Positions 1 through 3,885 of a stretch of DNA of 3,885 nucleotides are shown here, piece by piece; position 1 is the first letter of the stretch; every line of letters starts with the position of its first letter. The notes under the pieces are model-generated. The model did no database searches. It was not told the DNA's origin and was given only the letters and a program-made list of their open reading frames with translations. A program made the translations under genes and the position numbers. This stretch comes from a bacterium. Its GTDB lineage: Bacteria; Babelota; Babeliae; Babelales; JABCYS01. The stretch is from positions 1 to 3,885 of the forward strand of contig DAIDHG010000072.1 in assembly GCA_027452085.1 (NCBI GenBank), written 5' to 3'.

Positions 1-97
1 TAAGTCGAATAACGTAGTCGCCAGCCTCCTTAAACTCAAGCACGACTGTTTTTTTCTCACCTGCGCGGGCAGCATAGATTAAATTATTATTATCCAA
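1..97 (-). CDS. Partial CDS (5' end only) coupled to sufB; probably the next suf operon gene, possibly SufD-like
   Basis: A TTG at 97-95 overlaps the last 8 nt of sufB and is preceded by GGAGG (108-104) at 6-nt spacing. The frame is open to the window edge: MDNNNLIYAARAGEKKTVVLEFKEAGDYVIRL. The alternating hydrophobic pattern (TVVLEF, YVIRL) fits beta strands. It does not resemble a SufC ABC-ATPase N-terminus. The product is inferred from context only. Confidence 0.5.
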   Translation of the reverse strand, partial: MDNNNLIYAARAGEKKTVVLEFKEAGDYVIRL

Positions 98-1457
98 GTG
101 ATCCCTCCATCTGCATCGCAATCAACCGGTTAATCTCCACTGCATATTCCATAGGCAGTTCACGCACAAATGGCTCAATAAACCCATTCACCACCATCGC
201 CTGAGCCTGTTGAGCCGTAAATCCACGGGCGGTTAAATAAAAAAGCTGCGCTTCATCAATAGCATTTACCGAGGCTTCATGGCCAATATCCGTATCGGAT
301 TGAGCCACCTGGATGGTCGGATAGGTATCTGAGCGAGAATGCTCATCAAACATTAATGCATCGCATCGCACCCGGGAAATAACATTGTGTGCCCCTTTTA
401 TTACCTTGAGCAGGCCACGATAACTCGTGCGGCCTCCATTCATGCTCATCGATTTTGAAATAATATTTGAGGTGGTGTAGGGTGCCAGATGGATAACCTT
501 TGCGCCAGCGTCTTGATGTTGGCCGGCGTTAGCGCAGGCAATCGATATGATTTCCGCCTTTGCGCCTGGCTCTTTCAAAATAACTGCCGGATATTTCATG
601 GTCACTTTGCTGCCAAAGTTGCCATCAACCCATGCCACTTGTGCGTTGCGAAACGCCAAAGCTCGTTTCGTGACTAAATTGTACACGTTATTGGACCAGT
701 TTTGGATGGTGGTATAGCGGATATAGGATCCGGGTAGTGCCACCAGCTCTACCACCGCGCTGTGTAATGAAGCTGAAGAATGCAGGGGGGCTGAGCAACC
801 CTCGACGTAATGCACTGAAGATCCTTCGTCGGCAATAATAAGAGTGCGTTCAAATTGCCCCATACGCTGGGCATTAATTCTAAAATAGGCCTGTAGCGGC
901 ATATCCACCTGAACACCGGGCGGAATGTACACAAAAGAACCACCAGACCATACGGCACTGTTTAGCGCCGCGAATTTATTATCATCCGGTGGTATAACAG
1001 TGGCAAAATATTTCTTGAAAAGTTCCGGATACTGGGCCAACCCTTGATCAGTATCAACAAATATGACCCCTTTGGCCACCCATTCTTCTTTTAACCGCTT
1101 ATAAATAATCTCAGACTCATATTGCGCCCCCACGCCGGCTAAATAACGCTGTTCAGCCTGTGGAATCCCCAATTGATCAAAGGTAGTTTTTATATCAGTA
1201 GGCACATCGTCCCATGAGCGGGATGATTGCTGTATTGGTTTGAGGTAGTAACAAAGGTCTTGGATATTGAGATCTTTTAAATCGGCGCCCCATGAAGGCA
1301 TGGGGCTATGCTCAAATATTTCCAAGGCACGCAAACGAAATTCCAACATCCATGCTGGCTCATTTTTTTGCCTGCTAATTTCGATAACAATCTCTTGTGT
1401 AAGACCGTTTGGTATCTTGAAATAGGCTGACTCGGCATTATTGTTATGCTCTACCAT
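90..1457 (-). CDS. sufB: Fe-S cluster assembly scaffold protein SufB
   Basis: 455 aa with hallmark SufB motifs: EPAWMLEFRL, LAGVGAQYESE, NKFAALNSAVWSGGSFVY, PLQAYFRIN, GQFERTLII, HYVEGCSAP, LHSAVVE, YTTIQNWS, GSKVTMKYP, QHQDAGAK, CDALM, SDTYP, HEA and ELPMEYAVE..EGSLG. C221, C365 and E394 correspond to the essential E. coli SufB C254, C405 and E434, and the 29-residue C-to-E spacing is the same. Confidence 0.98.
   Translation of the reverse strand: MVEHNNNAESAYFKIPNGLTQEIVIEISRQKNEPAWMLEFRLRALEIFEHSPMPSWGADLKDLNIQDLCYYLKPIQQSSRSWDDVPTDIKTTFDQLGIPQAEQRYLAGVGAQYESEIIYKRLKEEWVAKGVIFVDTDQGLAQYPELFKKYFATVIPPDDNKFAALNSAVWSGGSFVYIPPGVQVDMPLQAYFRINAQRMGQFERTLIIADEGSSVHYVEGCSAPLHSSASLHSAVVELVALPGSYIRYTTIQNWSNNVYNLVTKRALAFRNAQVAWVDGNFGSKVTMKYPAVILKEPGAKAEIISIACANAGQHQDAGAKVIHLAPYTTSNIISKSMSMNGGRTSYRGLLKVIKGAHNVISRVRCDALMFDEHSRSDTYPTIQVAQSDTDIGHEASVNAIDEAQLFYLTARGFTAQQAQAMVVNGFIEPFVRELPMEYAVEINRLIAMQMEGSLG
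104..108 (-). promoter_or_regulatory. Shine-Dalgarno (GGAGG) for the gene downstream of sufB
   Basis: The minus strand reads ATGGAGGGATCACTTGGAT, with GGAGG 6 nt before the TTG at 97. It is embedded in the sufB M-E-G codons. Confidence 0.5.
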
Positions 1458-1463
1458 ATTTTT

Positions 1464-1473
1464 GCACGCGTGC
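1464..1473. repeat. Perfect 10-bp palindrome GCACGCGTGC, 6 nt upstream of the sufB ATG
   Basis: Read directly from the sequence. Function unknown. Confidence 0.3.
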
Positions 1474-1511
1474 CCTGTTATTCAAGCCCATGAAACGGAA
1501 AAGAAGATTTC

Positions 1512-1524
1512 GGTATTGTATACC
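1512..1524 (-). promoter_or_regulatory. Candidate sigma70 -10 box (TACAAT, 1520-1515) for sufB, overlapped by the inverted repeat GGTAT-N3-ATACC
   Basis: TACAAT is a 5/6 match to TATAAT and lies in the 103-bp intergenic region, about 57 nt upstream of the ATG. No convincing -35 was found. Confidence 0.3.
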
Positions 1525-1560
1525 AAGCGCAGACTATTAAAAGGTTAATTACGGTAGCTG

Positions 1561-3726
1561 CTATTGCCGGCAAGAATGTAACCGCTGCAGCGCTTGGTCA
1601 GCACGATCGTTGAACTCTTTTTGTTCTTGCGCTTGTACGAGCGCACTGCTCATCGGCATCTGCTCTGGGCAAAGCAATGCTTTTACCTTATGGTGAGGAG
1701 TTTCTTTATTGAGCCAACAATATAACTTCAATAAAGCTGCCGAACGATGGGCATCGTCAGCGCGATGAGTTTTCAATAATTCCTCTGCCTCTTGTGCCAG
1801 TTCTTGAGCTTGAGCATCATTCAAACGAATAAAGTTTTTTTCACGAGACCTGAGCAGATTTTCATTTTCATACACCTCTGAACGCGAAGCAATATTTACA
1901 ATGCCAATCGCCTGTTGCGCAGGCAAAATCTTGTAGATAATACGGTAATCACCGATACGTTTTTTCCAAAGACCCGCAAAGCCGGCCAGCTCTTGTGCAT
2001 CAGTCTTTGTATAATTCTCGCTCAACTGTTCGATGACCGCCTTTATTCGTGATTGATATGCCTCAGGTGCAGCAGCAATAGTTTGATAAGGATCTATCAC
2101 CATATGGGGAGGCACAATAGATCCCGGGGTTGATCGACCAGTTTCATGTGCTGGCGACATACGATTTTCAGCTTCTGGCGTTCCCTGCCTTTCTTGCTCA
2201 ATCGCCTTAACTTTTTGTTTTGCTGCAAGAATAAATTCTTTAATCGCTGGATTTTTTTGTTCTTCAAGCAAACCAATAATAGCCTGCGCCTCCTGCAATC
2301 GAGCATCGGTTGGCTTCAGCTTAAATGCTTCCATTGCCTGTTCAAAACGAGCCATTAAACCATCTGACACAATCTTGTGATACTGCTCCTGCATCGATGT
2401 GATACGTTTGAGCAGTTCAACATCCGTAATGGTCTTCAATTTTAGGTCATCAAGTAGTGTTTGAACGGTTTTGAGATCATCTTCTCTCAACGCTGAATCA
2501 ATGGATGCAACTATATTTTGCGCTTGAGCATTATGTTGCACCAACAGCTCTTTTCTTTGCATTGAAGCCTCTTCAGCTTCTCTGGTCGCCACGATCTTTT
2601 GTTCAGCGATTTTCTTGGCCATGGCATCTTTTAATAACTTTATTAATCGCTTATTTGATCCAAACTTCTCCTGAGCCATACTTAATGCAGTTTCACCATA
2701 TATGCTGTGCATCAGCGGATTTGCGCCCTTCGTAAGCAAGAGCTCAACGATATCGGCGTAGCCACCAACAGATGCCATCATAAGCGGGGTATAATTTTCC
2801 TTTGAAATGGCATTAATGGTTGCTCCTTGATCAATTAAATAGGCTGCAACATCGTGACAACCGCTTTGTGCTGCCTCCATTAACGTCGTTTTGCCTTCAT
2901 AACTTATGGCATGAATATTCGCGCCTTTTTGCTGCAACTTTTTGATCAAATCAAGATCGCCATGATCAACTGCCGAAAACATCGGGGTAAAGCCTTCGTT
3001 GTCAGTTGTATTAACATCGGCATTTTTTTCTAATAACAAGCGTACTGCGTCTGATTTTTTGAAATCAATCGCTTGATGCAAAGCTGAATTACCCTTCTCG
3101 TCTTTTAGATTAACGTTAGCTTTATTGCGCAATAATAGCTCTACAAACTCTAGTGACCCACGTCTTATTGCACCCATCAATAAACTATTACCCCACTTAT
3201 CTTGAGCGTTTATGCTTGCCCCTTTTTTCATGTATTCAGCTAATTCTTTTGCTGTTAATGATCGATGAAAGGCTGTAAGAATCATCTGAAACTCAAGCTC
3301 AGAGCAAACTTTAAAGGCACTTCGCCTCTTTTGTATCTTTTTCTCTTCATCACGAAGCAATTTTACAATATTAGGGTAGCGACCAATTTTACTGAGAATT
3401 TGGGTAATGGTTTTACCATCATTTCGCTTCATTGTTGGATCAGCATGATGGGCCAGTAATTGTTGAACGAGCTCAAGATGTCCATTCTGGCTGGCTATCA
3501 TAAGCGCTGTTTCGCCAGTTCCATGATCGAGCTCATCAATATATAAACCCTGTTCCAAATACCAATGCAATTTATCGGCTAGTTTGCCCGTCGCGGCATC
3601 TTCCAACATAGGCTTAGCCAGACGAGTCTTTATTTGAATTTGTTCCGCCGATAAGCAGGTAGCATATATATGCGTATTGACGCCAACAAACAGGGGCAGA
3701 AATAAAAATAATAAATAGTAGAACAT
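1561..3726 (-). CDS. Putative exported ankyrin-repeat protein with an internal RelE/ParE-family toxin-like domain (candidate effector)
   Basis: 721-aa ORF from ATG 3726 (weak GGA 6 nt upstream, no in-frame start further upstream before a TGA) to TAG at 1563-1561. Layout: hydrophobic N-terminus, about 10 ankyrin-like repeats in two blocks, helical region aa ~367-512, linker aa 513-540, RelE-like motif LAG..GLWKKRIGDYRIIYKI...IVNIASRSEVY, helical tail. Confidence 0.92.
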   Translation of the reverse strand: MFYYLLFLFLPLFVGVNTHIYATCLSAEQIQIKTRLAKPMLEDAATGKLADKLHWYLEQGLYIDELDHGTGETALMIASQNGHLELVQQLLAHHADPTMKRNDGKTITQILSKIGRYPNIVKLLRDEEKKIQKRRSAFKVCSELEFQMILTAFHRSLTAKELAEYMKKGASINAQDKWGNSLLMGAIRRGSLEFVELLLRNKANVNLKDEKGNSALHQAIDFKKSDAVRLLLEKNADVNTTDNEGFTPMFSAVDHGDLDLIKKLQQKGANIHAISYEGKTTLMEAAQSGCHDVAAYLIDQGATINAISKENYTPLMMASVGGYADIVELLLTKGANPLMHSIYGETALSMAQEKFGSNKRLIKLLKDAMAKKIAEQKIVATREAEEASMQRKELLVQHNAQAQNIVASIDSALREDDLKTVQTLLDDLKLKTITDVELLKRITSMQEQYHKIVSDGLMARFEQAMEAFKLKPTDARLQEAQAIIGLLEEQKNPAIKEFILAAKQKVKAIEQERQGTPEAENRMSPAHETGRSTPGSIVPPHMVIDPYQTIAAAPEAYQSRIKAVIEQLSENYTKTDAQELAGFAGLWKKRIGDYRIIYKILPAQQAIGIVNIASRSEVYENENLLRSREKNFIRLNDAQAQELAQEAEELLKTHRADDAHRSAALLKLYCWLNKETPHHKVKALLCPEQMPMSSALVQAQEQKEFNDRADQALQRLHSCRQ
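1867..2106 (-). other. RelE/ParE-superfamily (RelE-like mRNA interferase) domain, aa ~541-620 of the ankyrin protein
   Basis: ELAGFAGLWKKRIGDYRIIYKILPAQQAIGIVNIASRSEVY matches the RelE/StbE family pattern KLxG..xYRxRVGDYRIIYxI......VxxIGHRxEVY. The preceding helix PEAYQSRIKAVIEQLSEN fits RelE alpha2. RSEVY is identical to E. coli RelE 83-87. Confidence 0.85.
2629..3291 (-). repeat. Ankyrin repeat block 2 (aa ~146-366): N-cap, 5 full repeats and C-cap
   Basis: Exact 33-aa periodicity: G179 NSLLMGA, G212 NSALHQA, G245 FTPMFSA, G278 KTTLMEAA, N311 YTPLMMAS, G344 ETALSMA. The five full repeats are each followed by variants of V.LLL..GA.VN. Confidence 0.95.
3352..3618 (-). repeat. Ankyrin repeat block 1 (aa ~37-125): degenerate N-cap, 1 canonical repeat and C-cap
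   Basis: Canonical repeat GETALMIASQNGHLELVQQLLAHHADP (G71), followed 33 aa later by G104 KTITQI...IVKLL. Confidence 0.85.
3661..3726 (-). other. Putative Sec signal peptide (or signal anchor), aa 1-22
   Basis: MFYYLLFLFLPLFVGVNTHIYA has a strongly hydrophobic core followed by a polar c-region ending I-Y-A, a plausible SPase I site. It lacks a basic n-region. Confidence 0.7.
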
Positions 3727-3867
3727 GTTTTTTCCAATGTTGTCGTTTGTAATTACTGTATCGTCAAAATCTGGCCATTTTTTATGAGCAACTGTGTATC
3801 GGGCCGAATTGCCTCAATAAGTCGCGTATTATGTGTAATTAATAAAGAAGAGAATTCAGGATCATTC

Positions 3868-3879
3868 TTCCTTAAGGAA
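3868..3879. repeat. Perfect 12-bp palindrome TTCCTTAAGGAA upstream of the ankyrin gene
   Basis: Read directly from the sequence. Function unknown. Confidence 0.3.
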
Positions 3880-3885
3880 TTAAGC

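Follow-up and report, generated by a model that had tools for sequence, protein, structure and literature searches.

What is a toxin of the RelE type doing within a large protein that begins like an exported one and carries ankyrin repeats? The question is raised by contig DAIDHG010000072.1 (C72; assembly GCA_027452085.1), the 3885 bp of which make up the whole window analysed here. The contig belongs to a Dependentiae genome (G000) of 983 kb in 88 contigs, with a completeness of 92.9%. Its minus strand carries one intact open reading frame (ORF) for a protein of 721 residues, P0001. Our analysis leads us to consider P0001 a candidate Sec-exported effector of an intracellular Dependentiae parasite, in which a toxin of toxin-antitoxin origin would have been turned on host ribosomes; we regard the chances for and against this explanation as evenly balanced. 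The gene and the parts of its product, in window coordinates, are:

1561..3726, minus strand: whole ORF of P0001, 721 residues, stop codon included; one intact frame.
3661..3726, minus strand: leader, residues 1-22, MFYYLLFLFLPLFVGVNTHIYA, from the sequence; putative cleavage after A22 (IYA/TC, the slash marking the site).
2602..3648, minus strand: ankyrin-repeat region, residues 27-375; N-cap and about nine repeats in two blocks, from Pfam and AlphaFold helix pairs.
2185..2601, minus strand: helical stalk, residues 376-514, from AlphaFold; the first long helix starts at residue 359, within the last repeat.
2107..2184, minus strand: disordered linker, residues 515-540 (26 residues), rich in Pro/Ser/Thr/Gly, with a low predicted local distance difference test score (pLDDT).
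1819..2106, minus strand: RelE-fold module, residues 541-636, from PF05016, AlphaFold, Foldseek, VIA-align, a profile search of the PDB and column counts.
1564..1818, minus strand: helical tail, residues 637-721; in the alignment it matches where the longer TPR-like tails of P0002-P0010 start.

Two AlphaFold models were used, one of full-length P0001 (pLDDT 79.7, predicted template modelling score 0.43) and one of the fragment from residue 501 to 721, calculated with a 79-row alignment (pLDDT 85.6). Pfam matched residues 71-371 to ankyrin families (Ank_2, E 1.3e-44; Ank, E 4e-42), and the full-length model has nine helix-pair repeats plus an N-terminal cap, so that about ten ankyrin repeats are present. 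In both Pfam and the model, P0001 thus has the tandem 33-residue helix-turn-helix repeats that define an ankyrin protein. The stalk was modelled as helices at 359-414, 418-429, 436-470, 474-489 and 493-514 (pLDDT 75-87 in the full-length model). The linker that follows reaches a pLDDT of 31-50 in the full-length model, with block means of 54-67 at residues 511-530 in the fragment model, and comparable low-complexity linkers occur in relatives of P0001. The initial annotation of this DNA, made from the sequence alone, had claimed a single ORF with a signal-peptide-like N-terminus, about ten ankyrin repeats, a stalk and a RelE-like domain; every one of these elements was confirmed by sequence, Pfam and AlphaFold, and there is very little room for doubt that the architecture, from leader to tail, is real.

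A RelE/ParE-family match had been expected near residues 535-625, and PF05016 matched residues 551-619 with E 1.1e-7 and 32.7 bits, above the cut-off of 23 (37.8 bits in the genome scan). In the fragment model the module has the order strand-helix-helix-strand-strand-strand-helix at pLDDT 93-97, with strands at 542-544, 586-591, 594-601 and 606-614 and helices at 555-570 and 622-636. Foldseek comparison of the model with the PDB gave RelE chains at the first seven positions (TM-score (TMt) 0.66-0.77, root mean square deviation (rmsd) 1.9-3.1 Å), originating from T. thermophilus, M. tuberculosis (RelE1 and RelE2) and M. jannaschii. With VIA-align, run over 48,161 representative chains, toxins from the RelE/ParE superfamily occupied all of the top 24 rows (Z 7.4-10.7, the next row having 5.9), with T. 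thermophilus RelE at Z 10.4 and an rmsd of 1.9 Å over 81 residues. When a profile of ten family modules was compared with the PDB, nine RelE-type mRNases ranked first (E 5e-5 to 5.7e-3), and no chain named ParE was found at E <= 1. The models thus show a RelE fold for residues 541-636, as had been predicted, and the matches are mRNA-cleaving RelE toxins, no solved gyrase inhibitor of the ParE type having reached E <= 1 with the profile. On its predicted fold, P0001 is a member of the RelE/ParE superfamily (PF05016, BECR fold). Two further fold matches were seen with VIA-align: residues 39-168 of the fragment model also match Txp40, an insecticidal toxin, in its C-terminal domain (7xbj, Z 7.8), which is an observation on the fold only, and the CARF-RelE protein Cami1 (8phb) was matched with Z 8.4.

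The catalytic set of E. coli RelE consists of K52, K54, R61, R81 and Y87. In a HMMER pairing of P0001 with E. coli RelE, K588, R590, R595, R615 and Y619 were aligned with K52, R56, R61, R83 and Y87, respectively. Hence K588, R595 and Y619 pair with members of the catalytic set, while the invariant R615 pairs with R83 and not with R81. The conserved positions in the module are D545, P546, W587, K588, R590, R595, Y598, R615, Y619 and R628. All 22 representatives of the family described below keep D545, W587, a basic residue at 588, R590, R595, Y598, R615 and Y619, and R628 is found in 21 of them. Two features of the fused clade are absent from the consensus of stand-alone toxins: the first strand contains D545-P546-[FY], and the C-terminal helix contains R628. 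The retrieved parts of Zhang 2012 (PMC3482391) give [KR] and R (E. coli R61, R81) as the signature of Tox-RelE. By these alignments, a RelE-like active site appears to be matched largely, but not wholly, in the module, which is probably an active RNase of the RelE type.

Residues 501-721 were used as the query for an exhaustive HMMER search, in which 131 of 1.84 billion representatives were hit at E <= 1e-3. Twenty-two of these were counted as fused forms (P0001-P0021 and P0033; 179-1259 residues), and the remaining hits, besides P0069 (220 residues), are toxins of about 63-127 residues. Ahead of the module, Pfam detected ankyrin repeats in 6 of the 21 fused relatives of P0001, Sel1/TPR repeats in 11 and no repeat family in 4; almost no tail is present in the members of the Sel1/TPR type. 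PF05016 was matched at E <= 0.01 in 18 of the 21, and P0019, P0021 and P0033 miss this threshold yet align. Ten relatives looked up by cluster were all singletons or pairs, two of them carrying the source name 'mRNA interferase RelE/StbE'. The combination of ankyrin repeats and RelE that the initial annotation had put forward therefore does not stand alone, since the layout recurs in independent assemblies.

A quick maximum-likelihood tree (127 rows, 90 columns, LG+G4) was calculated from the 22 fused modules, 104 stand-alone hits of 70-130 residues and the ordinary RelE of G000; five hits were excluded, namely P0069 and four that were shorter than 70 residues. All 22 fused modules were placed together on one side of a branch with a Shimodaira-Hasegawa-like approximate likelihood ratio test (SH-aLRT) value of 100, and the 105 stand-alone toxins on the other. 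P0069, which stands outside the tree, has a hydrophobic N-terminus and PF05016 at residues 140-217; it is possibly one of the RelE proteins with a transmembrane domain that are reported in Gerdes 2025. Among the seven members of the ankyrin type, the module was the most conserved part in 19 of 21 pairs (34-98% identity), while repeats and stalk were 20-37% identical in the same pairs; the tail was more conserved than the module in 2 of the 21. This is consistent with purifying selection on the module. Judged by these identities, what stays constant in the family is the RelE module, and what varies is the repeat domain ahead of it (ankyrin or Sel1/TPR).

A Sec signal begins with a basic n-region, continues with a hydrophobic h-region and ends in a c-region whose residues at -3 and -1 are small. 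In the leader of P0001 (MFYYLLFLFLPLFVGVNTHIYA/TC), the hydrophobic core spans 15 residues, and positions -3 and -1 are occupied by I and A, respectively. A hydrophobic N-terminal segment is present in 17 of the 22 family representatives, and in most of these 17 leaders Lys/Arg comes first and position -1 is Ala or Gly (e.g., MKKILLLIFLLSVLSSSA/M and MTRHLLFRLIIAQLLFFGAPCLHA/TS). Six of seven paralogs in the sister species G084 share leaders of the form M-x-R-x-LLFR...A/TS, and all five other ankyrin ORFs of G000 have hydrophobic leaders. Sec-like leaders are thus the rule both among the family members and among the remaining ankyrin ORFs of G000, in line with the signal-peptide-like leader claimed for P0001. 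A secretin must be exported; the secretin on contig C54 of G000 (821 residues) has a leader (MILHIFLILAFACGPVLA/AD) without Lys/Arg ahead of its core, like P0001, and leaders without a basic n-region may be usual in this organism. A lipobox has the form [LVI][ASTVI][GAS]C at the cleavage site; a lipoprotein signal was rejected for P0001, in which YATC has Thr at -1, and the relatives lack Cys at this place. The machinery found in G000 comprises one signal peptidase I, three secretin matches and two ATPases of the type II secretion system (T2SS)/type IV pilus type. For Chromulinavorax destructans, a cultured member of the Dependentiae, the retrieved text of Deeg 2019 (PMC6561590) reports 98 ankyrin proteins, 78% of them with a signal peptide, and names Sec as the likely route. 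We consider it probable that P0001 is exported.

No antitoxin gene is adjacent to the P0001 gene, since neither of its flanks (26 nt and 103 nt) holds within it a whole ORF of at least 40 residues. Within P0001, Pfam and NCBIfam gave no significant antitoxin family, and a match to NF050009 VapB (E 0.077, 13.5 bits against a cut-off of 60) is noise. A type II toxin-antitoxin module was rejected for P0001, with neither an adjoining antitoxin gene nor a fused antitoxin domain. Likewise, no antitoxin or immunity gene was found between or after the paralogs in G084, which abut. The ordinary pair of the genome is located elsewhere:

1208-1755 of locus L002, contig C5 of G000: ordinary RelBE-like pair, in which the stop of an 86-residue ORF overlaps the start of a 95-residue PF05016 toxin.

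It is the one ordinary pair of G000 and lies beside a secretin-bearing region of C5; neither of its ORFs matched PADLOC. We infer that export stands in for an antitoxin: if the chain is exported unfolded, the toxin would be kept off the ribosomes of its producer, which would explain why P0001 has no antitoxin gene.

A match to the module at E <= 1e-5 was found in 28 of 261 Dependentiae genomes, and a frame of at least 500 residues with the module in five of them (G000, G084, G022, G015 and G217), G022 being from the same order as G000. With the module alignment as the query, 539 relatives were detected in 185,579 species genomes, and 77 of the best 80 of these loci are short stand-alone toxins in many phyla. 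Of 443 loci in a metagenome scan, the best 80 had short frames without exception and did not include the contig of P0002, the closest relative. Long frames were present in 3 of the 160 best loci of both scans, and all of them belong to G084 or G022, i.e., to Dependentiae. G084 is a sister species from the same genus as G000 and has seven paralogs of 618-1259 residues, arranged head to tail on one strand:

5323-15482 of locus L023 and 529-12042 of locus L024, contig C7 of G084, one strand: tandem paralogs around sufB, seven copies.

Four copies are located upstream of sufB and three downstream of sufB and a broken sufD-like frame, and the intergenic gaps among the paralogs are about 10-15 nt. 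The sufD-like frame beside sufB has 168 residues only and contains a TAA. While sufB is 90% identical between G000 and G084, the adjoining modules are merely 34-39% identical. P0002 and P0003 are probably also in tandem on one contig, because each comes from a contig recorded at 7670 bp. A constant module, variable repeats and tandem expansion in a sister species are, on this comparison, marks of a fast-evolving effector family.

The gene for P0001 is surrounded by genes of the suf operon:

3753..3884, minus strand: 3' end of sufC, last 43 codons, running off the contig edge; compared with sufC of G217 and G022.
90..1457, minus strand: sufB, 455 residues (TIGR01980, E 7e-204; Pfam SUFBD_core).

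The sufC stop is 26 nt upstream of the P0001 start, which is the first ATG/GTG/TTG past an upstream stop and has a weak GGA 7-9 nt on its 5' side; sufB follows 103 nt downstream of the P0001 stop. In G217 (L026 708-2841) and G022 (L027 1498-3553) sufC, sufB and sufD overlap or abut, with an overlap of sufC and sufB. In the window, sufC and sufB are 2.3 kb apart (1458-3752), and the 2.2-kb gene for P0001 occupies this distance. Because the suf genes overlap or abut in G217 and G022, we interpret the P0001 gene as an insertion into the housekeeping suf operon. A scan of the contig detected 8 promoter-like sites (7.9 expected) and 5 terminator-like sites (4.2 expected), which is nothing above chance, and the same scan gave no minus-strand promoter or terminator signal in either flank that would separate the P0001 gene from the suf genes. 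The GC content is 0.433 for the window and 0.42 for the ORF, compared to a genome mean of 0.441 (standard deviation 0.011). SufC in the window is seemingly about 19 residues shorter at its end than SufC of G217 and G022.

In the explanation that we favour, the very hydrophobic leader would guide P0001 to the Sec translocon, and signal peptidase I would cut after A22. Since the chain would be exported unfolded, the toxin would stay off the ribosomes of the bacterium itself. The ankyrin block may bind a host protein or structure, in line with the general role of ankyrin repeats, and the stalk and the 26-residue linker would hold the C-terminal module or free it after proteolysis. The module would act as a ribosome-dependent mRNA endonuclease; working in the A site of the host's ribosomes, cytosolic or organellar, it would cut mRNA and so shut off host translation. 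That P0001 is aimed at host translation has, in our view, an even chance at best, or one just short of it. More tentatively, the family as a whole may represent a RelE warhead of single origin behind interchangeable ankyrin or Sel1/TPR repeats, which is exported without an antitoxin for host-directed shut-off of translation and which, with less positive charge, DP[FY] and R628, would be re-tuned for eukaryotic cytosolic or mitochondrial ribosomes.

Several observations weigh against this explanation. The leader of P0001 has no Lys/Arg ahead of the hydrophobic core, and 5 of the 22 representatives have no leader (P0006, P0008, P0012, P0014 and P0020), among them P0006 of G084 (618 residues), which is a complete frame and also lacks repeats. 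No path from the periplasm to the host cytosol is known, the search for machinery having covered secretin, T2SS ATPase and signal peptidase I only. The clade of fused modules was obtained with a tree that was only a quick one over 90 columns. The fused form is rare among the Dependentiae genomes (5 of 261) and therefore does not have a core function. The module lies between an N-terminal part of 540 residues and a tail of 85 residues, and the tails of relatives reach up to about 300 residues; RelE action requires fitting into the ribosomal A site. Furthermore, E. coli RelE K54 and R81 fall into two-residue gaps of the alignment and have no one-to-one partner in P0001. Binding of rRNA by free RelE depends on a basic surface, and the module of P0001 (residues 541-621) is neutral, with net charge 0 and an isoelectric point (pI) of 7.2; across the fused family the pI of the module is 5.1-9.6, versus a median of 10.1 in 101 stand-alone hits. 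A new ribosome target might explain the low charge, as might a lower toxicity to the producer itself. In any case, the comparison of sequences suggests that the loss of charge weakens a simple 'RelE on a stick' reading.

P0001 may also be exported with a module that is no longer a ribosome-dependent mRNase and that has become a binding module (for RNA, ribosome or protein) or an RNase with another substrate. The pI of 7.2 against the stand-alone median, the lack of aligned partners for K54 and R81, the clade-specific D545-P546-[FY] and R628 and the embedding of the domain in a large protein all fit such a change. It is nevertheless unlikely on balance, as the basic residue at 588, R590, R595, R615 and Y619, aligned with RelE K52, R56, R61, R83 and Y87, are kept in 22/22 representatives, Cami1 is among the fold matches, and multidomain RelE proteins can still cleave on the ribosome according to the retrieved parts of Gerdes 2025 (PMC11980606). 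If the exported toxin were instead directed against other bacteria, i.e., competitors in the same host or environment, it would resemble polymorphic toxins with a Tox-RelE tip. The bacterial ribosome is the native target of RelE, and the parts of Zhang 2012 (PMC3482391) that we retrieved list Tox-RelE on signal-peptide/T2SS toxins and name ankyrin, Sel1 and TPR as repeats that occur in Sec-dependent toxins. We consider an antibacterial role improbable, since no immunity or antitoxin gene follows P0001 or any G084 paralog, a constant toxin tip with variable repeats is the reverse of polymorphic toxins, and Pfam found no RHS, HINT or filamentous parts in P0001 and its relatives. In addition, among the best loci of the scans the long form was found only in genomes of Dependentiae, which the retrieved text of Deeg 2019 (PMC6561590) describes as parasites of eukaryotic microbes.

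The missing basic n-region leaves the topology unfixed by sequence alone, and the N-terminal segment might be an uncleaved anchor of a protein that regulates the translation of its own cell, for example for arrest in an extracellular stage, with the tail or stalk as a built-in antitoxin. RelE-fold toxins with transmembrane domains (ToxM) and fused toxin-antitoxin genes occur (retrieved parts of Gerdes 2025, PMC11980606), and the tail helices at 622-672 were modelled next to the RelE core with pLDDT 93-97 in the fragment model. However, most leaders of the relatives have Lys/Arg first and a small residue at -1, an orientation that puts the rest of the protein outside; Pfam and NCBIfam gave no antitoxin family in P0001, and a tail that is nearly absent in the Sel1/TPR-type members cannot be a general antitoxin, so that we find an anchored regulator quite improbable. 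A role in anti-phage defence, with the ankyrin repeats as sensor and RelE as abortive-infection effector, is suggested by PADLOC matches to PDC-M72A (6.7e-48), Ankyrin (1.3e-21) and MzaA (6.9e-11), by a match to MzaA in NCBIfam and by the link of RelE/ParE toxins to defence drawn in the retrieved parts of Gerdes 2025 (PMC11980606). We give this very little credence: the best stretch of every PADLOC and NCBIfam match is the ankyrin repeats, no PADLOC family was matched by the RelE part, the NCBIfam MzaA score of 124.6 is far under the cut-off of 800, an exported protein would be unable to sense phage in the cytoplasm, and the neighbours are sufC and sufB and not partner genes. Finally, a contig of merely 3885 bp might carry an assembly chimera or a decaying pseudogene. 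This is hardly credible, because the same order of parts recurs in P0002, P0003 and six G084 copies (ankyrin) and in G022 and G015 (Sel1/TPR), and the G217 copy, of which only the last 615 residues are present, has a TPR-like region, stalk, linker and RelE module; recurrence in independent assemblies therefore argues against a chimera. Moreover, the frame is open over 721 codons and its composition is native.

Compared to known systems, P0001 shares most with the type II RelE toxins (E. coli, 4V7J/4FXE; P. horikoshii aRelE, 1WMI; M. tuberculosis RelE1/RelE2, 9G12/3G5O; T. thermophilus, 2KHE), namely the fold (TMt 0.75-0.77, Z 9.1-10.4), PF05016 with a WRxRxGxYR...R-x3-Y core and the partners for K52, R56, R61, R83 and Y87. 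These toxins have about 90 residues and are cytoplasmic and basic with an antitoxin alongside, whereas the module of P0001 is internal to 721 residues with a leader, is neutral, has no neighbouring antitoxin and carries its own signatures DP[FY] and R628. The Tox-RelE polymorphic toxins likewise have a RelE warhead on a signal-peptide-bearing exported protein, and a single classical RelE tip, that of an RHS/HINT toxin of Paenibacillus elgii with Imm54, is described in the retrieved parts of Zhang 2012 (PMC3482391). The fused family differs from them in that it has no RHS/HINT and no immunity gene, its toxin is constant and its repeats are variable; among the best loci of the scans it was found only in genomes of Dependentiae, parasites of protists, so that the host, rather than sister bacteria, would be its likely target. 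P0001 was rejected as a polymorphic toxin sensu stricto, given the module as the most conserved part in 19/21 pairs and the lack of a downstream immunity gene. The signal-peptide ankyrin proteins of C. destructans come from the same phylum and have the same layout of leader plus ankyrin repeats and the same presumed Sec route. For those proteins no enzymatic warhead is described and the word 'toxin' is absent in the retrieved text of PMC6561590, while P0001 ends in RelE.

A RelE fold within a larger protein is also found in Cami1 (CARF-RelE, 8PHB) and in the BECR-fold toxins, fused or transmembrane, that Gerdes 2025 (PMC11980606) describes. Unlike P0001, these proteins serve in defence, are cytoplasmic or membrane-bound and have antitoxin or sensor domains, as far as the retrieved parts go. 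According to the same parts, many multidomain RelE/ParE toxins for which no antitoxin was found were set aside in that study; its main text as retrieved does not contain 'ankyrin', 'signal peptide' or 'TPR', nor its supplement as retrieved 'ankyrin', 'Ank' or 'Sel1'. VapC of Rickettsia (retrieved parts of PMC12321070) likewise represents the idea of a toxin-antitoxin RNase of an obligate intracellular bacterium reaching host RNA, but it has a PIN fold, is paired with an antitoxin and, unlike P0001, is not fused to a leader or targeting repeats. In the literature searched, nothing was found on RelE/ParE combined with ankyrin repeats and a signal peptide or secretion, and PMC12644861, found in a search for Dependentiae together with toxin-antitoxin systems, does not contain 'RelE', 'ParE' or 'ankyrin'. 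The novelty that the initial annotation wanted checked for an exported effector with ankyrin repeats and RelE can thus be maintained for the combination and the family, which are not in the literature searched. It does not extend to the separate parts, which are known: a RelE warhead on an exported toxin is already published (PMC3482391), multidomain RelE proteins are known (8phb, PMC11980606), and ankyrin proteins with a signal peptide are the norm in Dependentiae (PMC6561590).

If the favoured explanation is true, P0001 would be, as far as the literature searched goes, the first RelE-type effector against a eukaryotic host, and a selfish bacterial toxin would have been recruited as a weapon against such a host. 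Co-export would then be able to stand in for an antitoxin in protecting the producer. The family would offer a natural set of RelE modules, possibly adapted to 80S or organellar ribosomes, and P0001 would be a concrete candidate for the means by which the Dependentiae, about which little is known, gain control of protist cells.

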